A DNA stretch of 64,000 nt from Planctomycetota bacterium (GTDB lineage Bacteria; Planctomycetota; UBA8742; UBA2392), in NCBI GenBank assembly GCA_020638675.1, contig JACKID010000001.1, positions 2,243,261 through 2,307,260 on the forward strand, in the 5' to 3' direction. The translations under genes were made by a program, and so were the position numbers. The stretch's first letter is position 1; every line of letters starts with the position of its first letter. The notes beneath the pieces were generated by a model. That model was not told the DNA's origin and ran no database searches. It worked only from the letters and a program-made list of their open reading frames with translations. This document shows, in pieces, positions 6,284-64,000 of this stretch.

Positions 6284-6501
6284 GGGACGGCTCCGGATGA
6301 CTGGGCGGGAACTGCCCGCCCTCAATCATCCCGAGCGATGGAGTGCGTTCGGATTTGACCATCGCGACGAGAGGTTTTTTCGCGCACGCAAGTGGGCGGT
6401 TCGGCGTGACTTCGGTGGAATCGATGAAATGGCGAAAAAGATTCTTTTCACGAACACGTACCATTCGCACGGACCACAAACGCCATGCGCGAAGGCAGCG
6501 A

Positions 6502-33213: not shown

Positions 33214-35505
33214 TCAGTTGCCGCTGAGCGCCAGTTCGCGCTTCCGTTCCTTGAGTTCGTCCGGCAGAAGCCCGGTGACGCGAAGGCGATCGATCCACAT
33301 CTTCATGATCTCCCACCGGCCTTCGTCGCGTGCCCATTTTGCGCGCTCATTGGCGGACTCTGCCCTCAGGCTCAGGCCCTCTTTGTTGCCTGCTTCGAGC
33401 GCAAGTACGGCCCCGCCCTTGTCGTAGGCTTCTTCAAAGTCCTGGTACCCGAACAGCAGGTCGGCCTTGCCCTTGTTCATTGCGGCGTGGCCTTCTTCGA
33501 GCAGTCTCTCGCGCTGCTCTCTTAGCGCGGTTTCCTGGGCAGACTTCGCGCGCATCTTGCGAACATCATCGGCGGCTGTCTCCACGGCCGCCAGCCCGTT
33601 GGTGGCCGTCTGGTCGCCTTCATTCACGGCGATGACTTTCTGGAACAGGTTCTTGGCCTCGTCGATCTTCAACTCGGCCTCGCGGAACTTGCCATCCTTT
33701 GCCAGCGGCTCCCACTCCTGCATCAGGGCCTGCGCGTCATCGTTCAGCCCGAGGATCTTGTCCTGGTCGAGCTTCTTGATGTACCAGAGCGTGCCGAGGA
33801 TGCCGCCGACCACCAGCAGCAGTGTCGCCGCGACGCCGAGGACTTCCTTGCGGTTTCGGCCGATCCACTTCATGGCCAGGCGCAGGGCCGAGTATTCGAC
33901 CGAGCCCATGGCCCGGCCCTCGATGAAGTTGCGGACGTTCTCGGCCAACTCCGCCACGGTATCGATGCGGTGTTCGGGCTCTTTCTCAAGGCACTTCAGC
34001 GCAAGGCGCTCAAGCTCTGCGGGGACTTCGATTTCCGGGTTGCGCTCGCGCGGCTTGACGGGCGTCATTTCGCGCACCTGCTCAAGCACCTCGTCGCTGG
34101 ACTTGCCGGTCCAGGGCGAACGCAGGCAGAGCATCTCGTACAGGATGACGCCCATGCTGAAGATGTCGCTGTGGTGGTTGATCGCGTCGATGTCACCCTT
34201 GGCCTGCTCAGGCGACATGTAGCTGGGCGTACCGATGATCGCGCCCATCATCGTCTGCGACGCACCCATATCGAGGCGGTCGGTCAGCACAATGTTGCTG
34301 TCGCTGCTGCTGCGGAACTGGCGCCCGATGACCTTGGCCACGCCCCAGTCCATCACCTGCACTTCGCCGAATCGGCCTACCATGATGTTGGCGGGCTTCA
34401 GGTCTCGGTGGATCACGCCGCGGTTGTGGGCAAAGCTCATGCCTTCGCAAATCTTGATGAAGGTATCGAGCAGCCGCATGAGGTCGAACTCGCGCCTCAT
34501 GTCGCGGTTGCCCTCTCGCAGTCGCAGCAGGACTTCCGCGAGACTCAGGCCTTCGACGAATTTCATGGTGAAATACAGATTGCCGGCGCCGTCGACGCCC
34601 ATTTCGTGCACCGGCACGATGTTGGGGTGTTCGAGCTGGCCGGTGATCTGCGCTTCTTCCAGGAAGCGCTCGACAACGTCGCGACGCCCGAGTAATTCCT
34701 TGCGCAAGACCTTCAATGCGACGCTGCGACGCAGCTCGGTGTCTTCGACCTCGAGCACTTTGCCCATGCCGCCGCGCGCGATCTCACGCACTACCACATA
34801 ACGCTTCTTGTCGGTCGTCGCATCAGGCTGATATTGCGCGAGCGACGACTGCATCTTGTCGCTCAGCAGCTTAACGCCTTCGTCTATGCCGATTTTCTGA
34901 CGCACCTGCGCGATCGTCATTTCGCTGGCGGCAATGATGGTGCCCGCCGGCACTTCCTTGTCGTCGCGGCTCAGGGCGTCCGTGTCGCGGTGCAGGTTCC
35001 AGCCGCTCGCCTTGCCGGCGCCGGTGCTGCGCGCGGTGGTACTCTTTCCCGCATTGCTGTCTTCCACGGGACGTGTGGTGGGCCTGCGCGCTTCGTCGAT
35101 TCCGCTGGTCGGGCGCTTGTCGGTCGGCGTCGTGCTGCGATCCACCGCGTCGGTCGGGCGGCGATCGGTGGGGCGATTGGATTGCTCCACGGGGTTCGTC
35201 GGGCGGCGATCGGTGTGTCGGCCGGTCTGGCGCTGTGGCGCACGCCCTGTCTCCTCGTCGCCCATGTCCGGAAGCAGGGTGGGCTCGGACAGCACGCCCA
35301 TCATGGCGTCATACAACTGGTCGGCATGCGTCTTCGTCAGGTGACCCTTGTGGATCACCAGCTCGTGCATGGTCATCTTCTTCTGGGTGGCCTTGCGACG
35401 GCGCAACTCAGAACGCAGCGTCTCGGCCTCGAGGGCCGATACGTGCCCGCGCTCGTGCACGAAGTTCAGGAACGCTTCGTCGATTTCGGCCTGGGTGTTT
35501 GGCAT
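33214..35505 (-). CDS. Hanks-type Ser/Thr protein kinase with a long C-terminal transmembrane plus coiled-coil/TPR-like region
   Basis: Kinase subdomains are present (GGMGKVL, VALKVL, HRDLKPANIM, DWGVAK, and APE-like SPEQ). A TM helix precedes the C-terminal ~250 aa. Confidence 0.85.
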   Translation of the reverse strand: MPNTQAEIDEAFLNFVHERGHVSALEAETLRSELRRRKATQKKMTMHELVIHKGHLTKTHADQLYDAMMGVLSEPTLLPDMGDEETGRAPQRQTGRHTDRRPTNPVEQSNRPTDRRPTDAVDRSTTPTDKRPTSGIDEARRPTTRPVEDSNAGKSTTARSTGAGKASGWNLHRDTDALSRDDKEVPAGTIIAASEMTIAQVRQKIGIDEGVKLLSDKMQSSLAQYQPDATTDKKRYVVVREIARGGMGKVLEVEDTELRRSVALKVLRKELLGRRDVVERFLEEAQITGQLEHPNIVPVHEMGVDGAGNLYFTMKFVEGLSLAEVLLRLREGNRDMRREFDLMRLLDTFIKICEGMSFAHNRGVIHRDLKPANIMVGRFGEVQVMDWGVAKVIGRQFRSSSDSNIVLTDRLDMGASQTMMGAIIGTPSYMSPEQAKGDIDAINHHSDIFSMGVILYEMLCLRSPWTGKSSDEVLEQVREMTPVKPRERNPEIEVPAELERLALKCLEKEPEHRIDTVAELAENVRNFIEGRAMGSVEYSALRLAMKWIGRNRKEVLGVAATLLLVVGGILGTLWYIKKLDQDKILGLNDDAQALMQEWEPLAKDGKFREAELKIDEAKNLFQKVIAVNEGDQTATNGLAAVETAADDVRKMRAKSAQETALREQRERLLEEGHAAMNKGKADLLFGYQDFEEAYDKGGAVLALEAGNKEGLSLRAESANERAKWARDEGRWEIMKMWIDRLRVTGLLPDELKERKRELALSGN

Positions 35506-53969: not shown

Positions 53970-55310
53970 CTACTCCATCTTCAGCTCGGTCAGCTCGATT
54001 GTGTGCGGGTCCGCGCCTGCGACTGTGGTCTTCGCGAGGATGACAATCCCGTTCCAGCTCCAGCTTTCGGTGTGTCCGTAGGCTTCGCTAACGGAATACA
54101 GCGCGGGATATGTGCCCGCTGGCGTCTCGACCATCTGCTCGATTTCGCCCGCGTAGGCTGCCGGCTCTTCTTCGGCCTCGCCCGGAAAGGTGTGCTTCAA
54201 CGTGTCCTTGCCCGTCTCGTTTCCCGCGGCATCGGTGACGGTCATCGTGTACGTCGCCTCGGTCTCGGTCACCTCGGTGACTTCGACGCGAACGGTCCTT
54301 TCCGGCTTCTTTTCGCCGTTTGCGGTCGTGTAGCTGCTGGTGACGTAGTAGTTGCCCAGCGTGCGGTAGAACTGGTGCTCGTCGTGGCCGAGGTCAAACA
54401 CCTCCAGGTCCATGCTGTAGTTCTTCATCTTTGTCGCTACGGTCAGCCCGGGCCAGTAGACGCTGGTCCAGCTTTCGAAACCCGCGTCATTCATGTGGTA
54501 GCACTGGAAGTCGCCGGCCGGGCAGTTCTTGGTGACCATCTCCATGTTGGATGAGGTTCCACCACCCATGGCCATGGCGGGCGCACTGAAGCTCATTTCC
54601 GTGTCCTGGCTGAACATGGACTTGCCGGTGTTGTCGAGGACGGAGAGCGTGAATGTCGCGCCGTCCGCGCGTACTTCCTTGACCTTGTACTCCATCGACG
54701 TCGAGGTTTTCCCACCGCCGGCGCCTGAGGTGGTGCGGATGGTCCAGCGCCTGCCTTCCTTGCGATAGAGCTGGTACGGGTCCACATCCGCGGCGTCGAA
54801 CCAGGTGAGCTTGGAAATCTGAGTCGAGCTCGAAGCAATCTTCAACTGCTTCACGACCAGCGGGTGATAGTCAACGCTCACCCACGTGGTGGTCTGCAAC
54901 GTCTCCGTCTTCGTCACGTGCTTGCGGCACTTGAACTTGCGGAAGCCCATATCGAGGGTCTCTTCGGTCAGGCCGGCCGCGGCGTAGCCCAGCTGCTCCG
55001 GTGATGGTGACTTCAGGTCGACTGTGTAGCTCGACGACGTGTAGCTGTTGCCGCCATCGGACACCGTCTCGTCAGTGATTTTCGCCTTGCCGTCCTTGTA
55101 GCTGGTCACCTGCACCGTCCGCTTGCTGACTTCGGGGGACTCGCCGCGTGTCCAGTCCACCACGCGGTAAGACCAGTTGCGGCCCTTCTTCGCGTACACG
55201 TCCATCAGCTTGATCGTCGGGTCGAGTTTGACTTCCGGTTCGGCGTCCTGTGCAAGCACGGCCGGGAACGCGAGCAGCAGCAGGAAGGCGGACAGGATCA
55301 GGCGTTTCAT
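53970..55310 (-). CDS. Secreted paralog-family protein P4 (internally duplicated)
   Basis: GGGGAGAT SD before the ATG at 55310 and a signal peptide (MKRLILSAFLLLLAFPAVLA). The conserved DPYQLYRKEGRRWT motif is present, with an N-terminal second partial copy (KGRNWSYRVVDW). C-terminus ...SWSWNGIVILAKTT...IELTELKME. Confidence 0.6.
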   Translation of the reverse strand: MKRLILSAFLLLLAFPAVLAQDAEPEVKLDPTIKLMDVYAKKGRNWSYRVVDWTRGESPEVSKRTVQVTSYKDGKAKITDETVSDGGNSYTSSSYTVDLKSPSPEQLGYAAAGLTEETLDMGFRKFKCRKHVTKTETLQTTTWVSVDYHPLVVKQLKIASSSTQISKLTWFDAADVDPYQLYRKEGRRWTIRTTSGAGGGKTSTSMEYKVKEVRADGATFTLSVLDNTGKSMFSQDTEMSFSAPAMAMGGGTSSNMEMVTKNCPAGDFQCYHMNDAGFESWTSVYWPGLTVATKMKNYSMDLEVFDLGHDEHQFYRTLGNYYVTSSYTTANGEKKPERTVRVEVTEVTETEATYTMTVTDAAGNETGKDTLKHTFPGEAEEEPAAYAGEIEQMVETPAGTYPALYSVSEAYGHTESWSWNGIVILAKTTVAGADPHTIELTELKME

Positions 55311-55382
55311 GGCATCTCCCCTGGCGACGGCTTGACCAGTGTAGTCGCCCTGTCCGCAAGTCGCCAAATCATTGCGCAAATG

Positions 55383-55407
55383 AAAGCGGGCGCCCGAAGG
55401 CGCCCGC
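55383..55407 (-). terminator. Cloned terminator hairpin, copy 1 (after P3)
   Basis: AAAGCGGGCGCCCGAAGGCGCCCGC, with a perfect 9-bp stem and a CGAA loop. It is identical to copies at 56462-56486 and 57533-57557. Confidence 0.6.
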
Positions 55408-55422
55408 CTGAGTGTCGTTGCC

Positions 55423-56376
55423 CTAGTCTACGTATTCAATCAGTTCAGTCGTCATCGACCCGCTTTCCATCTTGACCAGCAGGCCGGGGTATTTTTTCGA
55501 CATCCAGGATTTCGTGCCGCTCACTTCCGTCACAGTGCACTCAAACTCGCCTGCCTCAACCTTGATCGTTTCCTCGGTCGTCTTGACCTCAGGTCTGTCG
55601 CCCCAATCGTCTTCCGCTTCGCGGAACTCAATCTCTGTCTCGTTTGCCGGCAAGCCTGCCATCGGCTTCCTGTCCTTGTCCAGAACCGTGTATGACACCG
55701 TGGCACTGTTGGCACCGACTTTGATGACTTCCGCCTTGAAGTACGAGATTATGTCGTCCATGCCCTCAAGCTTCGTAGTGGTCTTCGCAGTCCATTTGCG
55801 TCCCTTCTTTTTGTAGAGCACATACGGGTCAGGCTTGTCCTTGTCTACGGCATAGCCCTCGCCGAAGTTCACGTCCGGGCTCGCTTCCTTCAGCTTCGCC
55901 AACGTGTCGAACCAGCGGACGTCACCTTCTCCGCGCGCCCACGGGAACACAAGAATCCCGAAGCGCTTGTTGATCTTGTCTTCGGCGACGATGGCCGCCT
56001 GTTCTACGCGCTGCAAGCGCTTGGCCGCATAGACGGCGTCGTGGACTTTGTAGTTGTCGGTTTCCATCACGTCGCTTGCGACGTCGCAGCCCTTCTTGTC
56101 CCAGGATGCATGCAGCGTCTCGGGTGGACTGCCGTTCCGTGCGTAGCTGATACGCGCGCTGTCGCGCATCCCGAAAAGGACCTTCTCCGTCTTTTCGGCC
56201 GCGAGTTCTTTCTCGGCCTTTGCGAGCCTGTCTTCGAGTACCTTGACTCGTTCCTCCAGCTCCTTGAGCCGCTCTTCGACAGTCTTGGAGGTCGTTTTCT
56301 GAGCAACGGTCACTACCGGGGCGATCGCCAGCAACACGCCAACCAACGCCGCAATCACTGCCGTCCTGATCATCAT
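55423..56376 (-). CDS. Secreted paralog-family protein P3
   Basis: AGGAGA SD, signal peptide MMIRTAVIAALVGVLLAIAPVVTVA, and a coiled-coil stretch. Motifs DPYVLYKKKGRKWT and ...AGEFECTVTEVSGTKSWMSKKYPGLLVKMESGSMTTELIEYVD. Confidence 0.6.
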   Translation of the reverse strand: MMIRTAVIAALVGVLLAIAPVVTVAQKTTSKTVEERLKELEERVKVLEDRLAKAEKELAAEKTEKVLFGMRDSARISYARNGSPPETLHASWDKKGCDVASDVMETDNYKVHDAVYAAKRLQRVEQAAIVAEDKINKRFGILVFPWARGEGDVRWFDTLAKLKEASPDVNFGEGYAVDKDKPDPYVLYKKKGRKWTAKTTTKLEGMDDIISYFKAEVIKVGANSATVSYTVLDKDRKPMAGLPANETEIEFREAEDDWGDRPEVKTTEETIKVEAGEFECTVTEVSGTKSWMSKKYPGLLVKMESGSMTTELIEYVD

Positions 56377-56461
56377 CGTCTCTCCTGTGTGTTCGGAATG
56401 CTCCAAACAGCTTCGTGGGCATTAGAGTTGTGAGCTTGCTGAACAGCAAGTCTCAAAAAAG

Positions 56462-56486
56462 AAAGCGGGCGCCCGAAGGCGCCCGC
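56462..56486 (-). terminator. Cloned terminator hairpin, copy 2 (after P2)
   Basis: The identical 25-mer AAAGCGGGCGCCCGAAGGCGCCCGC, preceded on the plus strand by an A-run (a T-run on the minus strand). Confidence 0.6.
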
Positions 56487-56502
56487 TTGTCTTCACACTG
56501 CT

Positions 56503-57426
56503 CTAGTCTTCGTCGCCTTCGTTGAACTCAACCAGTTCCATTGCCTCGCTCTTGACGATGATGCCCGGGTACTTCTTCATCATCCAGGTCTTGCCGTCGT
56601 CGTAGCTGATCGCCTCAAACGTGCCCGCCTTGCACTCAATCTCCTTTTCGATCGACTTCGGCGCGGGCGGCATTTCGCCCGACCCACGCTCGGCCGTCTC
56701 GAACTTGAGCGCCGTCGTGTTGGCCGGGCCCATCGCCTGGCCGTTCATGTACATCTGCGTTTCCATGTCGCAGCCGTCATCGGTTACGTTCTTGATCGTG
56801 GTCTTCATCTTGAAGCCGCCGGTGATTTCGTACGTCCAGTTGCGGCCTTCCTTGCGGTAGGCTGCCCATGGATCGATCTCGCCGTCGCCCTCTTTGGCGT
56901 CTTTGCCCTCGCCTTCAGCTTCCTTGCCTTCCCCCGCGTCCGTGGTCTTGTCTTCGATCTTCACCTCCTTGTGCGCTTTCTTGAGCTCGTCAAGCGAGGC
57001 GTACCAGTCGACCTTTGAGTCACCGCTCGCCCACTCAAACGTCATGATCGCGAAGCCATCTTTGCCGGCCACGTCTTCCACTATCAGCGCTGCGCTTCCC
57101 CGCTTGTCAGTTACGGCGTAGACTTGGTCGTGCATCTTGGCGTAGTCACCCTTCAAGTCTTCCGCAGTCGCACCACACCCTTGTTTGCCCGCCTCGCCGG
57201 TCAGCGTTTTCGGTGCTTCACCGGATTTTGCATAGGCAACGCGAGCCAAGTCCCTCATCGATCCGATGATCTCCTCGCACTCCTTGCGGCGATCCTCCTG
57301 GCTGGTCTGCTTGGGCTTCACTTCTGCGGGCTCCGCCTCGTCCTTGGCTTCCTGTGCAAGTGGAGCCTGGGCAACAAACACGCACGCAACGAGTGCGGCC
57401 AAGAGCATCGTGAATGTGTTTTTCAT
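56503..57426 (-). CDS. Secreted paralog-family protein P2
   Basis: GGAAGGAAA SD and a signal peptide. Motifs DPWAAYRKEGRNWT and ...KAGTFEAISYDDGKTWMMKKYPGIIVKSEAMELVEFNEGDED. Confidence 0.6.
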   Translation of the reverse strand: MKNTFTMLLAALVACVFVAQAPLAQEAKDEAEPAEVKPKQTSQEDRRKECEEIIGSMRDLARVAYAKSGEAPKTLTGEAGKQGCGATAEDLKGDYAKMHDQVYAVTDKRGSAALIVEDVAGKDGFAIMTFEWASGDSKVDWYASLDELKKAHKEVKIEDKTTDAGEGKEAEGEGKDAKEGDGEIDPWAAYRKEGRNWTYEITGGFKMKTTIKNVTDDGCDMETQMYMNGQAMGPANTTALKFETAERGSGEMPPAPKSIEKEIECKAGTFEAISYDDGKTWMMKKYPGIIVKSEAMELVEFNEGDED

Positions 57427-57532
57427 AGTCAGTTTCCTTCCCTAGCGCGGCAGACGCCGCTCGTCAGTAAGGGCCAAATTAGACACCTGAGGGCATAGTG
57501 TGTCCATCTTCACAATTGATCCACCAAACAAA

Positions 57533-57557
57533 AAAGCGGGCGCCCGAAGGCGCCCGC
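57533..57557 (-). terminator. Cloned terminator hairpin, copy 3 (after P1)
   Basis: The identical 25-mer again, AAAGCGGGCGCCCGAAGGCGCCCGC, with a T-run on the minus strand (TTTTTTGTTTGG). Confidence 0.6.
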
Positions 57558-57581
57558 TCGGTACTGCTACCGGGAATTCAA

Positions 57582-58124
57582 CTATTCCTTGAACTCAACC
57601 AGCTCGGACTTACCGGCGGCCGACTCCATCTTGACCATCAGGCCCGGGTACTTCTTGGACATCCAGGTCTTGGTGCCGGAAACTTCGGTCATGGTGCACT
57701 CGAACTCACCCGCACCAACCTTCACGGTCTCGTCCTTGGTCTCAACCTTGGGTGCGGCATCCGCCGGAGCCGTGGTATCAGCCTTCGTGAACGGGATCTT
57801 CGTCGGCTCGGGCTCAGGCATGCCGGCCATGGGCTTCATGTCGGCGTCGAGAGTCCACATCTTGACCATCGCGTGATCGTCGGCCACTTCAACAACTTCG
57901 GTCTTGCTGTGGCTGATGTTTCCACTGAAGTCGTTCTTGACGACCCAGATGCGGCCCTTGGACTTGTAAAGAGCGTACGGGTCTGATGCGGTCTCGCCAC
58001 CGCAACCACCGCCACAAGCGGCCGTGTTGCCGCCGTTGCCGCCTGCAGCGTTGTTGCCGCCGCCACAAGCAACTGCCACGACTGCCACCAGGCAAAGAAG
58101 GCTGAAAAGGATGCTCTTACGCAT
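57582..58124 (-). CDS. Paralog-family lipoprotein P1 (shortest member)
   Basis: GGGAGAA SD and a signal peptide with a lipobox-like VAVAC, followed by a Gly/Asn/Ala-rich linker. Motifs DPYALYKSKGRIWV and ...AGEFECTMTEVSGTKTWMSKKYPGLMVKMESAAGKSELVEFKE. Confidence 0.6.
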   Translation of the reverse strand: MRKSILFSLLCLVAVVAVACGGGNNAAGGNGGNTAACGGGCGGETASDPYALYKSKGRIWVVKNDFSGNISHSKTEVVEVADDHAMVKMWTLDADMKPMAGMPEPEPTKIPFTKADTTAPADAAPKVETKDETVKVGAGEFECTMTEVSGTKTWMSKKYPGLMVKMESAAGKSELVEFKE

Positions 58125-58321: not shown

Positions 58322-58561
58322 ATGCCCATCTACGAATACCGCCACACAGGCAAGATCGGCGACACCTGCGAGGAGTCGTTCGAGATCTTTCAGAAGATGT
58401 CCGACGAATCGCTCACCAAGTGCCCGGTGTGCGGAAAGCCCGTCGAGAAGATACTGTCGAGATTCTCCGGCGGTGCCGATAAGATGGCACCCAGCCGCCT
58501 GAAAGAGCTTGGCTTCACGAAGCTCGTAAGACGCGACAAGGGCGTCTACGAAAAAGAGTAA
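58322..58561 (+). CDS. FmdB-family zinc-ribbon protein with a degenerate first Cys pair
   Basis: MPIYEYRH...C matches the FmdB signature MPxYEYRCxxC, but only one Cys remains in knuckle 1. The second knuckle CPVCGK is intact. Confidence 0.6.
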   Translation: MPIYEYRHTGKIGDTCEESFEIFQKMSDESLTKCPVCGKPVEKILSRFSGGADKMAPSRLKELGFTKLVRRDKGVYEKE

Positions 58562-58588: not shown

Positions 58589-59827
58589 ATGATGCGTCAG
58601 CGATTCGTCCTTTCCGCGTGCATGGCACTCTGCCTGGCCGCATGCGGCCAACCTGAAGAAGACACAGAGCCCGTCAAGCCCATCAAGGTCACCGTCGGCG
58701 TCGCGCTGGAAGAGCCGATGATTCCGACAGACCCGGCCGTCGACCCTGCCGTGGCCTATGACGGCACGCGCGTACACATGGTCTACAGCCAGTCCAACGG
58801 GACGCAGTACAATCTCATGTACACCCAGCGCCTCGGTGGCGGCAGCTTCACGGCGCCATCGCCGGTTTTCCCGGGCTCTACGGGCAACAGCCGCAACGCG
58901 CACGTGTTCATGGACAGCGCGGGAACGCTGCACATCGTCTGGGAAGAAGGCACAACGCCCAACCGCGAGATCTACTACGCCACGCGCACCAGCGGCGGCG
59001 TGCTGAGCACCCCGGTCGACATGACCAACACCAGCGAGGACGAGGCCGACCCGCGCGTGCACGTCGACAGCACCGGGCGCATCCACATCATCTGGACCGG
59101 CTCGACTGTCCCACCCAACCCCACAACGGCGATCTACTACAGGCGCACGCAGGGTTCGATCTTCCTGTCCGCGACGATTCTGCCCAAGGGCACAGGCAAC
59201 CAGCCGGCCGAAATGGGCGACATCTGCACCGACGCCGGCGACCGCATTTACGTGGTCTGGGCCGAAAGCGACGGGGCGTCCCGCAACATCCGCATGGTCC
59301 GCAGTGACGACAACGGGCAGAATTTCGGCGGTGTCGGCAGCGGCTTTGCCGCTAGCGGCTCGGTCGACATGACCCAGCCGCGCGTGCAGGGCGGCACCGA
59401 CGGCGAAGTCTTCCTCACGTTCGTGGGCCAGGCGCAGAACGGCGACCGGGCGTTGTTCGTCACATACACGCGCACGGGCGGCACGTTTGCCAGCCCGGGC
59501 CAACTGGTCAGCAGCCAGACGCTCGGCATACGCGACCCGGAAATCGCCGCCTTCGACCGCGGCTCGAACGACTACAACGTCTTCGTCGTCTGCAACGACG
59601 GCTCCACCGCGGGAGGAGCAATTCTACTGTTCAGCAGCCACGACAACGGCGAGAACTGGTCCGAGGACCCTGTGGACATGAGCCAGGGCAACTCCCAGCC
59701 CGTGACAAACGTTTCCCCGGCCGTGGCGCTGGACGACAACGAGGTCATCGTCAGCTGGGCGGCGCAGCCCCAGGGGGGTGGAATCGTCCGGACCTGGACC
59801 TCGACCAGCGACTACAGCTTGCCCTAG
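58589..59827 (+). CDS. BNR/Asp-box repeat lipoprotein (sialidase-like beta-propeller)
   Basis: Lipoprotein signal (LAAC). Asp-box SxDxGxxW motifs appear as SDDNGQNF and SHDNGENW. Repeated ...IYYA/IYYR... blades. Confidence 0.65.
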   Translation: MMRQRFVLSACMALCLAACGQPEEDTEPVKPIKVTVGVALEEPMIPTDPAVDPAVAYDGTRVHMVYSQSNGTQYNLMYTQRLGGGSFTAPSPVFPGSTGNSRNAHVFMDSAGTLHIVWEEGTTPNREIYYATRTSGGVLSTPVDMTNTSEDEADPRVHVDSTGRIHIIWTGSTVPPNPTTAIYYRRTQGSIFLSATILPKGTGNQPAEMGDICTDAGDRIYVVWAESDGASRNIRMVRSDDNGQNFGGVGSGFAASGSVDMTQPRVQGGTDGEVFLTFVGQAQNGDRALFVTYTRTGGTFASPGQLVSSQTLGIRDPEIAAFDRGSNDYNVFVVCNDGSTAGGAILLFSSHDNGENWSEDPVDMSQGNSQPVTNVSPAVALDDNEVIVSWAAQPQGGGIVRTWTSTSDYSLP

Positions 59828-59964
59828 GTGGCCGCGAGCGGAAAATTACCTCAACGAACGTGCTCCCCATTGACACGGTAGGCGCAAACCCTATCGTTTT
59901 CTGCCCTTGAGAGATCGCTGCCTCGTCGCGCACTGTGGCGAGGCGTCGTTTATTGGAGTCATGA

Positions 59965-61251
59965 ATGTCCACCGCGGTTGCCTCCGACCTGCTGACCGAA
60001 GTTACCGAGACAAAATCACCTGACATCAAGCACCTGCTGCAGCTGCGCGAGCAACTGCTGGCGGAGCCCGGGCTGCGCAAGACCGCAGACGCCGCGCTTG
60101 ATAACTGGACCGCATCACGCGAACGCCAGGGCGTGCTGCTGTACCTGCTCGGGCGCCTTGAGCGCTCGCTGACTATCCTCGAAACCGAGGCCGCCAGCGC
60201 ATGGAGCAAGCACTTCCTCGCGCGCGCCTACGTTGACTGCGGCTTCTACGCCAAGGGCGAAGAGCTGCTCAGCGGCGAGCTGAAGAACAACAAGGACCTC
60301 GAAGTCGTCATGCCCCTGTACCGCTCACAGGTCATGCAGGGCAAGTACGACGAGGCCGCGAAGACACTCAAGGCCTTCAAGGGCGATCACCCGTCCGTCA
60401 AGGCCGGCTTCATTGAGCTGAAGTACCGCGAAGGCGACCTCGAGACCGCGATGGATGAAATCGTCGCGCTTTACAACGATGTGCAGGACGACCGCATGGT
60501 CGCGTTCGTCTACGGCCAGATCGCGCAGGCCGCCGGTGACGACGAAGCCGCGCGCCGCGCCTATGAGCAGATCGCCCAGCACCCGCCGGTAGCGGTGGAC
60601 GTGTTGATTAACCTCGGCACGCTGTATGAAGACGAGTCGCACTGGGAACTCGCCATCAAGTGCTATGAGACGGTGCTGGCTGCATACCCGACGCACTCGC
60701 GCGCCCGCCTTTACAAGCGCGACGCGGAAGCCAGCAAGAACATGTACTACGACGAAGATCGTGAGCGCAAGGAAGACAAGCGCCTGCAGATCCTGCGCAC
60801 GCCGGTCACCGACTTCGAGCTTTCGGTGCGCTCGCGCAACTGCCTGCAGAAGATGAAGATCGACACGCTCGGCGACCTGATCCTGAAGACCGAGTCCGAG
60901 CTGCTGAGCTACAAGAACTTCGGCGAGACCAGCCTGCAGGAAATCAAGTCCATCCTCGGCTCCAAGGGCCTGCGACTGGGCATGCGCACCGAGGACGCGC
61001 TCGCCTACGCTCCGCCGGAAGACGGCAGCGCACCGGTCATCACGGGCGACGACCAGCTGGCGCAATCGATCGACGCGCTGGAGCTTTCCGTGCGCTCGCG
61101 TCGATGCATGGAGCGACTTGGTATCAAGACTGTCGGCGAATTGGTCGACAAGACAGAGGCCGAGCTTGTGGCCGCGCCGAACTTCGGCCAGACCTCGCTC
61201 AACGAAGTGCGCCAGAAGCTGGCCGAGATGAACCTGTCGCTCAAGGGCTAA
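59965..61251 (+). CDS. TPR-repeat protein with two tandem RNA polymerase alpha-subunit C-terminal-domain (alphaCTD)-like modules
   Basis: An N-terminal TPR-like helical region, then two HhH modules: ELSVRSRNCLQKMKIDTLGDLILKTESELLSYKNFGETSLQEIK and ELSVRSRRCMERLGIKTVGELVDKTEAELVAAPNFGQTSLNEVR. Confidence 0.6.
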   Translation: MSTAVASDLLTEVTETKSPDIKHLLQLREQLLAEPGLRKTADAALDNWTASRERQGVLLYLLGRLERSLTILETEAASAWSKHFLARAYVDCGFYAKGEELLSGELKNNKDLEVVMPLYRSQVMQGKYDEAAKTLKAFKGDHPSVKAGFIELKYREGDLETAMDEIVALYNDVQDDRMVAFVYGQIAQAAGDDEAARRAYEQIAQHPPVAVDVLINLGTLYEDESHWELAIKCYETVLAAYPTHSRARLYKRDAEASKNMYYDEDRERKEDKRLQILRTPVTDFELSVRSRNCLQKMKIDTLGDLILKTESELLSYKNFGETSLQEIKSILGSKGLRLGMRTEDALAYAPPEDGSAPVITGDDQLAQSIDALELSVRSRRCMERLGIKTVGELVDKTEAELVAAPNFGQTSLNEVRQKLAEMNLSLKG

Positions 61252-61272
61252 AGACAACTCGAAATGAACAAT

Positions 61273-61325
61273 GCAAAATCCAAAATTGGACCGCACGCCT
61301 GAGTCCATTTTGGATTTTGCAATTT
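61273..61325 (+). terminator. AT-rich long hairpin after the TPR-alphaCTD gene
   Basis: GCAAAATCCAAAATTGGAC ... GTCCATTTTGGATTTTGC (~18-bp imperfect stem), followed by aattt. Its composition is unusual for this GC-rich locus. Confidence 0.45.
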
Positions 61326-61345
61326 GAAGTCCCTGCGGAGCTGTG

Positions 61346-62647
61346 ATGTCGGATGCCACGGGCACAGTTACCGACCCTCTCGAATTCAGAGAGGGCCGCG
61401 GCGCCCTGGACTTTGGCCTGCTCGCCGTTCGCAACGGCTTGCTGACGGCCGAGCAGCTTGAAGATTGTCGCGCCAAGCAGGCGGCCAGCGCCAACCTCGG
61501 CGAAAACAAGACACTCAAGGACATCATCCTCGCCAGCCGCCTCATGACCGAGGAAGAGTGCCTGCGCGTCGAGCGTGCGCAGCAGCACCTGACGCAGGAC
61601 CGCGAGCGCAAGCAGGACCTCAAGTTCAAGGGCTACGAGATCATCAGCACGCTCGGTGAAGGCGGGCTGGGCAGCGTGTTCAAGGCGCGCCAGGTCAGCA
61701 TGAACCGGCTCGTCGCGTTCAAGGTGCTGCACAACCAGTGGATCAGCGACGACGAGTTCCGCAAACGCTTCGTGCTTGAGGCCCGCATCGTCGGCAAGCT
61801 GAGCCACCAGAACCTGATTCAGGTCTACGACGTCGGGCGCGAGGCCGACTACTACTACTTCAGCATGGAGTTCGTCGACGGGCGTACGGTCGAAGACCTC
61901 GTGCGTGAGGCCCCGCGCAAGCAGATGGAAGTCGCGCGCGCCGTGGACATCTGCATCCAGACGCTGCGCGCGATCAACTACTACAAAGACTTCGACATCG
62001 TCCACCGCGACATCAAGCCCAGCAACATCATGATCACGCGCTCGGGCCTGGTGAAGCTGGGCGACTTCGGCTTCGTGAAGAGCAAGCTGGACAAGGAGCT
62101 GGGCTACGAGGGCATGGTGCTCGGCACACCGGACTACATCGCGCCCGAGCAGGCCATGGGCAAGGAAGACGTCGACTATCGCGCCGACATCTACAGCATG
62201 GGCGCGACGCTGTACCACATGCTCACCGGGCGTCCGATGTACGACGGCACGCCCAGCAAGGTCATGCTCGCGCACACGCGCACGCCAATGCCGGACCCGC
62301 GCACGTATCGCCCCAGCCTGGGCGACGACGTGGTCAACGTGCTGCAACGCATGCTGGCGAAAGACCCCAACCAGCGCTACGCGAACATCAACAGCCTGTT
62401 CGCCGACCTCGAGGCACTGCGCGATGCCCACAAGGCCAAGGCCGCAACGAAGTACGAGATCGGCAAGAGCAGCATCATGCGCGCGCTGAACATCGAAAAG
62501 AGCCGCCACAATGAGCTGGCCGAGCGCATCAAGACCGCCGAAGCCAAGGCCGACGCCGCCTCCGCCGCGGCAAAGCTGGCCTGGGGAGTGGCCGCCGGCG
62601 CGGTTATCGCGGCGCTGACCTTCCTGATTCTCTGGCTGGCTACGTAG
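61346..62647 (+). CDS. Hanks-type Ser/Thr protein kinase with C-terminal TM anchor
   Basis: GGAG SD before the ATG at 61346. Kinase motifs present: GEGGLGSV, AFKVL, HRDIKPSNIM, DFGFV, and an APE-like APEQ. A C-terminal hydrophobic helix. Confidence 0.85.
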   Translation: MSDATGTVTDPLEFREGRGALDFGLLAVRNGLLTAEQLEDCRAKQAASANLGENKTLKDIILASRLMTEEECLRVERAQQHLTQDRERKQDLKFKGYEIISTLGEGGLGSVFKARQVSMNRLVAFKVLHNQWISDDEFRKRFVLEARIVGKLSHQNLIQVYDVGREADYYYFSMEFVDGRTVEDLVREAPRKQMEVARAVDICIQTLRAINYYKDFDIVHRDIKPSNIMITRSGLVKLGDFGFVKSKLDKELGYEGMVLGTPDYIAPEQAMGKEDVDYRADIYSMGATLYHMLTGRPMYDGTPSKVMLAHTRTPMPDPRTYRPSLGDDVVNVLQRMLAKDPNQRYANINSLFADLEALRDAHKAKAATKYEIGKSSIMRALNIEKSRHNELAERIKTAEAKADAASAAAKLAWGVAAGAVIAALTFLILWLAT

Positions 62648-63097
62648 ATGCCGCCGCCAGACGGAACCCGCTTTCACGCATCACTAAGCCGCTGGACAAT
62701 CGGCCTCCTGGTCGCGACCGCGTTCGTAGTCGCCGCGACATTCGGCATTGAGACTCTGCGCTCCGACTGGGTTCTGGTCGGCGTGGTCGTGCTGGCTGCA
62801 TCGGTCGCCGTGGCCGTGGCAGGCGAGGTCTTGCTGCACTTCGTGGCCGGCCCGCGCAGTTACGTGGTGAATGACACGGGGCTGTGGTTCGGTCGCGGCA
62901 GCAATCTGACGAAGCTGTTCGACTGGAGCGAAGTAACTTCCTGGAAGCTCATCACGCAGCGCAACGGCAACGACCGTTGGAAGATTGAAACGGATGACAA
63001 GGTCTTCACCATCCGCAAGCTCGACGTGGAGCTTCCCTCGGCAGACAATTTCGCACGCGAACTTGAAACACGGATCAGTACCCCGCGATCCGCTTGA
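62648..63097 (+). CDS. Hypothetical membrane protein (two N-terminal TM helices plus a small soluble domain)
   Basis: The ATG immediately follows the kinase stop (TAGATG), suggesting co-transcription. No recognised family. Confidence 0.5.
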   Translation: MPPPDGTRFHASLSRWTIGLLVATAFVVAATFGIETLRSDWVLVGVVVLAASVAVAVAGEVLLHFVAGPRSYVVNDTGLWFGRGSNLTKLFDWSEVTSWKLITQRNGNDRWKIETDDKVFTIRKLDVELPSADNFARELETRISTPRSA

Positions 63098-63099
63098 GC

Positions 63100-64000
63100 T
63101 CATGGGCGCGGATAGAGGCGCGCCCAGTACTCCCAGAACGTGGGGAAGCTCTTGGCGACGCACTCCGGGTGTTCGATCTTGATCGCCGTACGCAGGCCGG
63201 CGATGGCAAAGCTCATTGCCATGCGGTGATCGTCATACGTGGATATAGCAACCGGCTTTGAGTGCGAAGCGTCAGCGATCGGCCCGTCCACTTCCAGCCA
63301 GTCGCCACCTGCCAGTGTTTCTACGCCAAGTTTCTTCAACTCGGCCTGCAATGCCGCAATCCGATCCGTCTCCTTCACCCGCAGCGTGCTCAGCCCTTTC
63401 AGGCGTGAAGTCCCCTGCGCAAAGGCGCACACGACCGCGAGTGTTTGGGCGCAATCCGGCAGGCCAGAGAGATCCGCTTCAATCGCACGCAGTGGTGCAC
63501 CCTTCACACCAAGACCGTTCGGGAACTCCAGCACTTCGCAACCCATCTGCTCCAGCAGGTCGACAAAACGTACGTCCCCTTGCACGCCGCCCCGCGCCAA
63601 GCCATCAATCACGCATGTGCCGCCAGTGACAGCCGCCGCGCCCCAGAAGTAGCTCGCGGCCGTGCCATCCGGCGGGCAGGTGTAGTGCGTCGGCCGATAG
63701 TTTGCTTCGTGGATGTGAAAGCGCCGATAGCCGTCGCGCTCGATGTTGCTCTCGGGAATGCCGAACGCCTTCATCACTTCCAGCGTGATGTCCGCGTAAG
63801 GCTTGCTGACGAGATCACCCTCGATTTCGATCTCGATTCCCCCACCGCGCGTCGGTGCAATCATCAGCAGTGCAGACAGGAACTGGCTGGAGACGTCGCC
63901 TCGCAGAGTGCATTTGCCGCCGCGCAATGACGCTCCTTCGATCTCCAATGGAACGCAGCCCGACGCGCCCGCCTCAGTGATCCGCGCTTCCAACTGCCGA
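63100..64000 (-). CDS. aroA: 3-phosphoshikimate 1-carboxyvinyltransferase (EPSP synthase), C-terminal part; 5' end beyond the window
   Basis: LRGDVSSQFLSALLMIAPT and downstream EPSPS motifs. The ORF remains open at the window edge. Confidence 0.88.
   Translation of the reverse strand, partial: RQLEARITEAGASGCVPLEIEGASLRGGKCTLRGDVSSQFLSALLMIAPTRGGGIEIEIEGDLVSKPYADITLEVMKAFGIPESNIERDGYRRFHIHEANYRPTHYTCPPDGTAASYFWGAAAVTGGTCVIDGLARGGVQGDVRFVDLLEQMGCEVLEFPNGLGVKGAPLRAIEADLSGLPDCAQTLAVVCAFAQGTSRLKGLSTLRVKETDRIAALQAELKKLGVETLAGGDWLEVDGPIADASHSKPVAISTYDDHRMAMSFAIAGLRTAIKIEHPECVAKSFPTFWEYWARLYPRP

Follow-up and report, generated by a model that had tools for sequence, protein, structure and literature searches.

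A TPR protein with two RNA polymerase αCTD-like modules next to a Hanks kinase gene: a local member of a large Planctomycetota family

The window, the whole 64-kb stretch of planctomycete DNA analysed here, contains a gene for a protein with an N-terminal tetratricopeptide repeat (TPR) region and two modules resembling the C-terminal domain of the RNA polymerase (RNAP) α subunit (αCTD). On the same strand it is followed by a Hanks-type Ser/Thr kinase gene and a small membrane protein ORF, and the latter converges with aroA. The features of this region are the following.

59870..59897, plus strand: sigma-70-like promoter candidate, TTGACA-16-TATCGT, upstream of the αCTD gene
59919..59945, plus strand: GC-rich leader stem-loop of 12 bp, from a terminator-like scan
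59965-61251, plus strand: TPR + 2×αCTD gene, 428 aa, cytoplasmic; the local orthologue in a family spread across the Planctomycetota
59965 to 60744, plus strand: TPR-like solenoid, residues 1-260, all-helical, 16 helices in ~8 repeats
60715..60801, plus strand: charged linker helix, residues 251-279, DAEAS..MYYDED.ERKEDKRLQILRT, leading into αCTD module 1
60802..60987, plus strand: αCTD module 1, residues 280-341, the best-conserved part of the family (conservation 0.85)
60988..61068, plus strand: tether between the αCTD modules, residues 342-368, acidic, partly disordered, ~25 residues
61069..61248, plus strand: αCTD module 2, residues 369-428 (conservation 0.74)
61272..61321, plus strand: AT-rich stem-loop 3' of the αCTD gene stop codon, arms of ~20 bp
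61343 (or ATG 61346)-62647, plus strand: Hanks Ser/Thr kinase, 434 aa, with a helical N-terminal domain (residues 1-95), a catalytic domain (residues 98-347, nt 61634-62383) and a linker
62564-62644, plus strand: C-terminal membrane anchor of the kinase, residues 408-434, a single hydrophobic segment at the extreme C-terminus
62648-63097, plus strand: ORF of 149 aa with two transmembrane (TM) segments, TAGATG junction with the kinase gene
63100..63993, minus strand: 3' part of aroA (EPSP synthase; PF00275, E = 1.8e-69), convergent with the small ORF

The 428-aa protein matches the Pfam model RNA_pol_A_CTD (PF03118) over two stretches (149.9 bits against a cut-off of 23.8, E = 1.6e-44) and three TPR models above their cut-offs (TPR_6, 38.7; TPR_2, 35.4; TPR_19, 36.1 bits). 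The RpoA models of NCBIfam also match it twice, with their C-terminal ~80 positions only (from position ~212 or 242 on), and module 1 can be aligned over its entire length to the αCTD of Escherichia coli RpoA (1COO; ~78 residues, E ~2e-16). A sequence-only reading of this DNA had proposed an N-terminal TPR region followed by two αCTD-like modules of the helix-hairpin-helix (HhH) type, and both the domain order and the nature of the repeats are borne out by these profile matches and by the alignment. The modules begin with FELSVRSRNCL and LELSVRSRRCM, respectively, and are 45%–49% identical to each other (E ~1e-14). A hydrophobicity scan of the protein found no hydrophobic, TM, or signal-like segment.

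In the AF2 model of the protein (mean pLDDT 88.9, pTM 0.62), the 16 TPR helices are followed by a linker helix and two αCTD bundles of 4-5 helices, with a disordered tether. The solenoid, whose helices span H2-15 to H245-259, is the most variable part of the family (mean conservation 0.39–0.47), and a Foldseek search of the PDB with the model returned generic TPR superhelices only, headed by an 8-repeat consensus TPR (E = 1.8e-7), OGT, and PEX5. The linker region that follows contains near-invariant columns (conservation 0.72) and is modelled as a helix at residues 264-277. Each module is predicted to fold into a compact bundle of helices containing two HhH-like hairpins, as seen in the model and in sequence alignments to 1COO and 3K4G, with helices at residues 288-296, 302-306, 310-314, and 321-333 in module 1 and 376-385, 390-394, 398-402, and 409-421 in module 2 (pLDDT ~88-92). 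The tether between them carries a net charge of -6, is poorly conserved (0.38), and has pLDDT values below 50 at residues 351-360.

Residues R265, N294, G296, S299, and E302 of E. coli α, and also N268 and C269, contact the DNA minor groove and backbone, and E. coli genetics has shown that K298 matters for UP-element binding. R265, N268, C269, G296, K298, and S299 make up the 265-determinant for DNA contact. Counted over 104 family members, the equivalents of R265, N294, G296, S299, and E302 are invariant in both modules. Module 1 has R289, N292, N318, G320, T322, S323, and E326 in 104/104 members and C293 in 103, thereby keeping the N268 and C269 equivalents as well, and the N268 position of module 2 is occupied by R or K. 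The K298 position is a threonine in both modules of all 104 members, compared to a lysine in every solved RpoA αCTD aligned, and the K297 position is Glu in module 1 and Glu or Gln across the modules of the family. Except for these two positions, module 1 keeps the residues of the 261-, 265-, and 287-determinants of E. coli: the D259 equivalent is found in 102/104 and that of E261 in 104/104 members, and most of the 287-determinant is retained (T285, E286, E288, L289, and G315), so that the positions for σ and activator contacts (D259, E261, T285, E286, and E288) are preserved. The invariant exchange of K298 for threonine implies that the DNA affinity or specificity of these modules may differ from that of genuine α, and, together with the Glu at K297 of module 1, it could also mean that DNA binding was lost rather than retuned.

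We found the same architecture of ~425-460 aa in at least 7,850 protein clusters with a significant match and in at least 591 species genomes of the Brocadiia, Phycisphaerae, and Planctomycetia; the family is present in every major Planctomycetota class sampled. The combination had been considered uncommon in the sequence-only reading, which these numbers contradict. Members of this unnamed family are 39%–97% identical over ~90%–100% of their length and agree in domain order and invariant residues, with a lineage-specific stretch of ~50 residues at the N-terminus. They are annotated either as ‘tetratricopeptide repeat protein’ or as ‘DNA-directed RNA polymerase subunit alpha C-terminal domain-containing protein’. 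The protein encoded in the window has the length of the family, a TPR region followed by two PF03118 modules, and the family motifs of module 1 (DFELSVRSRNCL and KNFGETSL) and of module 2 (NFG.TSL); judged by its sequence, it is an ordinary member of a large uncharacterised family common across the Planctomycetota. A full-text literature search found no paper or experiment on this family or on free-standing αCTD proteins, and its one match for PF03118 lists the domain merely as a phylogenetic marker.

The genomic context of the gene varies within the family. At 74 broad-family loci, the gene 3' of the αCTD gene is ruvA (n = 32), spoIID (n = 19), or tgt (n = 10) in 61 cases, on the same strand and at distances of 8-460 bp. 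Whereas most members thus lie upstream of ruvA, spoIID, or tgt-yajC-secDF, the gene studied here is flanked by a lipoprotein gene and the Hanks kinase gene. The typical context was not found in the window or at the related loci L004, L001, L084, and L003, where the kinase gene lies downstream instead, and ruvA was not found anywhere in the 64 kb. The functions of the conserved neighbours ruvA, spoIID, tgt, and secDF are unrelated and do not point to any particular role.

The kinase gene probably starts at the ATG at 61346, which is preceded by a GGAG at a distance of 7 nt. Its product matches Pkinase (PF00069) with 169.5 bits (cut-off 31.7, E = 1.2e-49) and contains GEGGLG (GxGxxG), VAFK, HRDIKPSN (HRD), DFG, and APE; it is predicted to be an active Hanks kinase that is anchored by its tail and has the catalytic domain in the cytoplasm, and it has no extracytoplasmic domain because the protein ends at the TM segment. 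It scores 287.3 bits against the PASTA kinase model PknB/Stk1 (NF033483), below the cut-off of 450, and is not a member of that family. Instead, it belongs to a phylum-wide Planctomycetota orthologue group of ~415-435 aa with 49%–64% identity over the full length, including the helical N-terminal domain, and shares with it the post-catalytic motif IGKSS(I/V)(M/I/L)RA. Two distant orthologues of this group were examined, and both have a DSP/PTP phosphatase gene directly upstream (gap of at most 5 bp) and no αCTD gene within 7 kb; such a phosphatase was not found in the 64-kb window. The 149-aa ORF encodes TM segments at residues ~16-38 and 41-69 and a C-terminal domain of ~80 aa, without a match in Pfam, NCBIfam, or PADLOC. 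Of the related loci, only L004 has this ORF, and although the two genomes are near-identical, the encoded proteins share just 48% amino acid identity; it is missing from L001, L084, and L003 and has only eight representatives at E ≤ 1e-3 among 1.84 billion, which marks it as a fast-evolving orphan that, given the TAGATG junction, is presumably translationally coupled to the kinase. The adjoining aroA gene is complete in L004.

Upstream of the αCTD gene, the promoter candidate agrees with the consensus at 10/12 positions, which is a consensus match only, as planctomycete promoters are poorly known. Between the leader stem-loop and the ATG lies a GGAG, a ribosome-binding site spaced 5 nt from the start codon. 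The stem-loop 3' of the gene has a dG of -26.9 kcal/mol (z = -3.6); no second copy of the arm sequence occurs in the window (0.02 matches expected by chance), which rules out a repeated element, and Rfam gave no match for the hairpin or the leaders. An operator for the αCTD modules was also considered and rejected, as the hairpin sequence is conserved only in L004. L001 and L084 have different stem-loops at the same position, that of L084 being a canonical intrinsic terminator. Since these other relatives have unrelated stem-loops there, a terminator is the simpler reading, and the hairpin at 61272-61321 probably terminates or attenuates transcription of the αCTD gene.

The hairpin, the kinase with its C-terminal TM segment, and the 2-TM ORF joined to it had all been placed correctly by the sequence-only reading, which further combined the genes into a signalling module. 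In its developed form, this proposal makes the TPR-2×αCTD protein a substrate of the kinase: phosphorylation, for instance of the tether or linker, would switch its binding to DNA or RNAP, and the 2-TM protein would serve the kinase as a membrane sensor or partner. The two genes are adjacent on the same strand in all four directly read loci of the window's lineage (the window, L004, L001, and L084); of the four sister-group loci, which are more distant, L003 alone shows the same arrangement; about 11 further group-A αCTD/kinase pairs probably share a contig, judging by equal longest contigs (e.g. 6760, 5925, 5193, and 3580 bp; a twelfth equal-contig match of 111,504 bp is L003, which was already read directly). 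The upstream context of the L003 pair differs from that in the window's lineage, and that the pair was kept nevertheless leaves some room for functional coupling. Phosphorylation is also physically possible, since the catalytic domain, with all its motifs, and the αCTD protein both face the cytoplasm, and BREX PglW offers a precedent for physically joining an αCTD-like HhH region to a Hanks kinase. The expected synteny of the gene pair, however, ends with these lineages: no kinase adjoins the αCTD gene at the sister-group loci L085, L086, and L087 or at any of the 74 broad-family loci. Within the window's lineage, the whole block of eight genes from a Zn-ribbon gene to aroA is syntenic, and the adjacency therefore carries no specific signal. 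The pairing of the distant kinase orthologues with a phosphatase, the terminator-like stem-loops between the two genes, and the patchy orphan ORF likewise speak against a three-gene module. Phosphoregulation of the αCTD protein is thus unsupported, and we regard the switch as improbable; judged by gene order, the αCTD-kinase pairing is a lineage-specific juxtaposition and not a conserved system.

Another explanation would dispense with DNA binding altogether: the modules may mimic αCTDs and occupy the docking surfaces of activators or of σ region 4 in competition with the αCTDs of RNAP, and the TPR region would confer specificity or sequestration. The preserved 261-determinant and most of the 287-determinant in module 1 fit such a decoy, as does the loss of both DNA-loop lysines, which is compatible with weakened DNA contact. 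Yet no positions of the family are more invariant than the equivalents of R265, N268, C269, N294, G296, S299, and E302. It is difficult to account for this without selection on the DNA-contact face itself, and the decoy is rather unlikely. Less credit still is due to a recombination or repair accessory acting with RuvA, in which the HhH-type modules would contact branched or duplex DNA. This idea draws on the 32 loci with ruvA immediately downstream (gaps of 8-303 bp, and of 8-40 bp in the tightest 19), which come from lineages ranging from Brocadiaceae to Phycisphaerales and Planctomycetaceae. The same position is held by spoIID or tgt in 29 other loci, however, ruvB is not among the recurrent neighbour families, the window lacks ruvA, and the modules are far closer to the RpoA αCTD than to the RuvA-type HHH_5 (E = 0.048, below threshold), so that we consider a role with RuvA very unlikely.

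With moderate confidence, we favour a reading in which the family protein is a constitutive cytoplasmic adaptor that binds DNA or RNAP partners bivalently, its neighbours forming no conserved system with it. By analogy to the two αCTDs of the RNAP α dimer, the two tethered modules may bind A/T-rich minor grooves bivalently, or they may bind the partners of αCTDs, and the TPR solenoid would hold a protein partner. Such a protein would be a constitutive nucleoid or transcription accessory adaptor rather than an RNAP subunit. A bolder version, which we consider a long shot, would make this phylum-specific, trans-acting αCTD pair a general transcription cofactor of the Planctomycetota that acts at UP-like A/T tracts or bridges activators and σ to promoters, in parallel to or in competition with the αCTDs of RNAP, and is tuned in the window's lineage by the adjacent membrane-anchored Hanks kinase. 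For the window itself, the outcome is mainly a correction, replacing an unusual signalling module by an ordinary gene of a large family in a lineage-specific juxtaposition with a kinase gene. Planctomycetota have an unusual cell biology, and to our knowledge their transcription machinery is almost unstudied. A protein with two nearly canonical αCTDs on a TPR scaffold and invariant DNA-contact residues is a candidate lineage-specific transcription or nucleoid factor, for which the invariant exchange of K298 for threonine offers a clean mutational handle.

Among known systems, PglW of BREX type 2/Pgl (NF033442; PADLOC PDLC02512) combines similar parts, a Hanks kinase region (match at profile positions 506-815) and, directly after it, a stretch to which the two αCTD modules align (positions ~798-861; E = 2e-9 and 4e-11). 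With scores of 35.7 and 71.8 bits against a cut-off of 990, this is a domain-level similarity only, and whereas PglW is a single defence protein of ~1,400 aa, the family described here is housekeeping-like and phylum-wide. A defence system was considered and rejected: no BREX genes lie nearby, the PADLOC matches are at the domain level only (generic PD-T4-6 kinase models and the PglW HhH region), and the phylum-wide, housekeeping context disfavours such a role. AtfA of Acinetobacter was considered as a possible αCTD-like factor and dropped from the comparison, as a review describes it only as an acidic RNAP-binding protein of 67 aa. The closest known system is the αCTD of RpoA (PF03118; 1COO, 1LB2, and 3K4G), which is alike in sequence and fold, and the two modules per molecule echo the two αCTDs of the RNAP α dimer. 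Unlike in RpoA, a single chain carries the two modules in tandem behind a TPR solenoid, the N-terminal assembly domain of α is missing, and the RpoA equivalog models of NCBIfam score below their cut-offs (TIGR02027, 141.5 vs. 227.8; best NF0035xx model, 159.8 vs. 302). Together with the threonine at K298, the tandem arrangement on a TPR scaffold and the missing α N-terminal domain suggest a paralogous use of the αCTD rather than a subunit of RNAP.

The three open reading frames (ORFs) described in the sequence-only reading are all present at the locus with the features reported for them, confirming that observation:

59965-61251, + strand: αCTD protein, 428 aa, combining tetratricopeptide repeats (TPR) with two modules of the type found at the C-terminus of the RNA polymerase α subunit (αCTD)
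61343-62647, + strand: Hanks kinase (PF00069, E = 1.2e-49)
62648-63097, + strand: 2-TM ORF, 149 aa, starting in a TAGATG junction and encoding two hydrophobic segments

The Pfam model RNA_pol_A_CTD (PF03118) matches the 428-aa protein in two stretches (E = 1.6e-44, 149.9 bits, cut-off 23.8), and several TPR models score above threshold. NCBIfam RpoA equivalog models align through their last ~80 positions only, twice, and below their full-length cut-offs. The two modules, αCTD-1 (residues 280-341) and αCTD-2 (residues 369-428), share 45-49% identity, and the Escherichia coli αCTD structures 1COO, 3K4G, and 1LB2 align end to end with the first (E about 2e-16). In an AlphaFold2 model computed from 104 family members (mean pLDDT 88.9), residues 1-260 form a TPR-like solenoid of 16 helices, followed by a linker helix (residues 264-277), αCTD-1, a disordered stretch (residues 351-360), and αCTD-2. 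Generic TPR superhelices were the sole matches of the N-terminal part in a Foldseek search of the PDB. The protein lacks any hydrophobic segment and is therefore cytoplasmic.

Residue conservation was counted in the 104 family sequences, with E. coli numbering fixed by alignment to the E. coli αCTD. The equivalents of R265, N294, G296, S299, and E302 are invariant (104/104) in both modules. N268 is likewise invariant in module 1, where C269 is kept in 103/104 sequences, and module 2 carries R or K at the N268 position. The K298 position is occupied by Thr in every family sequence and in both modules, and the K297 position by Glu in module 1; all solved genuine RpoA αCTDs in the alignment have Lys at 298 (GKKS, GRKS, GQKS), and both substitutions are specific to the family. 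Conservation is highest in αCTD-1 (0.85), followed by αCTD-2 (0.74) and the pre-αCTD linker helix (0.72), the TPR region (0.47), and finally the N-terminus and inter-module tether (0.38-0.39). Selection therefore falls chiefly on the two modules and precisely on their DNA-contact face, but with an altered lysine loop.

A search with the αCTD protein returned at least 7,850 significant matches, the best 120 of which are nearly all 420-460 aa long, combine TPR with PF03118, and are labeled as Planctomycetes 'tetratricopeptide repeat protein' or 'RNA polymerase subunit alpha (C-terminal domain-containing protein)'. When one genome per species was scanned, the family turned up in at least 591 genomes, those listed including Brocadiaceae, Kuenenia, Sedimentisphaerales, Fontivita, Pirellulales, Gemmataceae, Planctomycetaceae, and Kolteria. 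With these numbers, the TPR plus tandem αCTD architecture, previously called uncommon, is not unusual, and the 428-aa protein is an ordinary member of a catalogued Planctomycetota family without functional characterization. Full-text literature searches found no paper on this TPR-2×αCTD family. Taken as a whole, the family is a sensible subject for experiments. The orthologue in MAG HKST-UBA87 (locus L004) is 97% identical, so this MAG represents essentially the same organism as the window.

Genomic context was read at the 74 broad-family loci for which 900 bp or more were available downstream, classed by the immediate same-strand downstream gene. This gene is ruvA at 32 loci (gaps 8-303 bp), a SpoIID-domain gene at 19, and tgt at 10, and a Hanks kinase gene occupies the position at none of the 74. 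The downstream block usually continues with tgt-yajC-secDF, and a murA-type gene often lies upstream in divergent orientation. The ruvA linkage is found in Brocadiia, Phycisphaerae, and Planctomycetia alike and is therefore old. The ancestral setting of the αCTD gene is a housekeeping cluster. Within the broad-family loci (L005-L083), gaps to ruvA (e.g. L010, 7258-7900; L007, 4479-5100) are often 8-40 bp, and ruvA is followed by tgt-yajC-secDF, not by ruvB; this ruvA context beside the αCTD gene is unusual and seems to be ancient.

The kinase translation shows every catalytic motif, and its start is more probably the ATG at 61346, 7 nt after a GGAG. The only hydrophobic segment (residues 408-434) lies at the extreme C-terminus, so that the kinase is tail-anchored and has a cytoplasmic catalytic domain but no extracytoplasmic sensor. 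Its orthologues across the phylum (~415-435 aa, about 50% identity over at least 94% of the length) have in common an N-terminal helical domain and a post-catalytic IGKSS(I/V)(M/I/L)RA motif. The window also encodes a second, larger Hanks kinase of 763 aa (33214-35505, - strand). Its Pkinase match covers residues 236-515, and in the catalytic domain it shares about 31% identity with the first.

The window's αCTD sub-clade falls into two groups: group A (the window, P0013, and P0041, 65-74% identical among themselves) and group B (P0047-P0055, 45-50% identical to group A). In each of the four group A loci read (the window, L004, L001, and L084), the kinase gene comes directly after the αCTD gene, and for 11 more group A αCTD/kinase cluster pairs the longest contigs are of equal size, down to 3,580 bp, implying that both genes lie on the same contig. 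In group A, synteny extends over the entire block (Zn-ribbon-lipoprotein-αCTD-kinase-aroA-aminotransferase-Fer4), so the adjacency there is not a specific signal. In group B, the pair is kept in one of four loci, L003, with a different upstream context, and is absent in L085-L087. The upstream part of the block, syntenic with the αCTD gene in L004, L001, and L084, comprises in the window an FmdB-type Zn-ribbon gene (58322-58561, + strand, 79 aa) and a gene (58589-59827, + strand) for a 412-aa lipoprotein, which matches 'PDIAV motif lipoprotein' below threshold and BNR repeats weakly. In two distant genomes (loci L088 and L089), the kinase orthologue directly follows a DSP/PTP phosphatase gene (gap at most 5 bp), and no αCTD gene lies within 7 kb. 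The phosphatase of this tight pair (L088, 6537-8260; L089, 6540-8263) has 152 aa, and the pair is preceded by genes for an AMP-binding enzyme and for a protein of 125 aa that lacks a Pfam match; it looks like a conserved Planctomycetota cassette, which is absent from the window.

Between the αCTD and kinase genes, the window contains a stem-loop (61272-61321) with arms of about 20 bp that are unique in sequence within the window (dG -26.9 kcal/mol, z = -3.6). Each lineage has a stable stem-loop in this spacer, but the sequence differs: the window and L004 have an AT-rich one of 20 bp, L001 a GC-rich one of 11 bp. In L084, the spacer (6300-6400) contains a hairpin that is very long and almost perfectly paired, with a U-tract after it (dG -62 kcal/mol, z = -5.1), which makes it a canonical intrinsic terminator; to our knowledge, such textbook terminators have seldom been documented in Planctomycetota. 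On the simplest reading, αCTD transcription would end ahead of the kinase gene.

The 2-TM ORF is absent from the L001, L084, and L003 loci and does not belong to a conserved gene module. It has no match in Pfam, NCBIfam, or PADLOC, and only eight cluster representatives among 1.84 billion reach E ≤ 1e-3. At this place in L004 (8683-9129) lies an intact ORF of 148 aa, which has the TAGATG junction and layout of its counterpart in the window but only 48% amino acid and about 60% nucleotide identity to it, and which keeps the motifs GPR.YVV, GL.FGRG, and RWK.ETD.K.FT.R. DNA divergence between the window and L004 runs exactly from the kinase stop to the aroA stop, with flanking genes 87-97% identical. 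The ORF is a hypervariable cassette, a genuine accessory gene that evolves fast and is translationally coupled to the kinase. Elsewhere in the window (53970-58124, - strand), four tandem genes encode proteins of 469, 327, 307, and 180 aa with signal-peptide-like N-termini and a common C-terminal module of ~130 aa (DPY.LYKKKGR.W ... AG.FEC ... SGTKSWMSKKYPGL.VK); apart from one sub-threshold DUF3108_like match, no Pfam family was found for them. They form an array of local paralogues, whose products are predicted to be secreted.

Overall, we lean slightly towards a constitutive αCTD adaptor that would act bivalently and hold a protein partner through its TPR region. The two flexibly tethered modules may bind, bivalently, either the minor grooves of DNA or the partners of αCTD, behaving like the two αCTDs of the α dimer, and the TPR solenoid would grip a protein partner. 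Module 1 also retains D259 (102/104), E261 (104/104), T285 or S, E286, E288, L289, and G315, which belong to the surfaces used by E. coli α to contact σ region 4 and activators of the CAP type. These surfaces would also suit a decoy for activators or σ, which we consider unlikely next to DNA-contact residues that are invariant in both modules. More doubtful still is the kinase-controlled adaptor of the sequence-only reading: the pairing itself stands in all four group A loci and one of four group B loci, but as a signaling module it is weakened by its absence from all 74 broad-family loci. A recombination accessory linked to RuvA, to which the old ruvA neighborhood points, seems very improbable; ruvB does not follow there, and a SpoIID-domain gene or tgt takes the place of ruvA at many loci.

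The constitutive adaptor resembles RpoA in carrying αCTD domains and, as proposed, in working like an αCTD. It differs from RpoA in lacking the N-terminal assembly domain and in falling short of the equivalog cut-offs, and for these two reasons the 428-aa protein is not RpoA. In the BREX PglW profiles, positions 506-815 matched the kinase and positions of about 798-861 the αCTD modules, so that PglW, at the level of domain similarity only, provides a precedent for a Hanks kinase coupled to an αCTD-like region.
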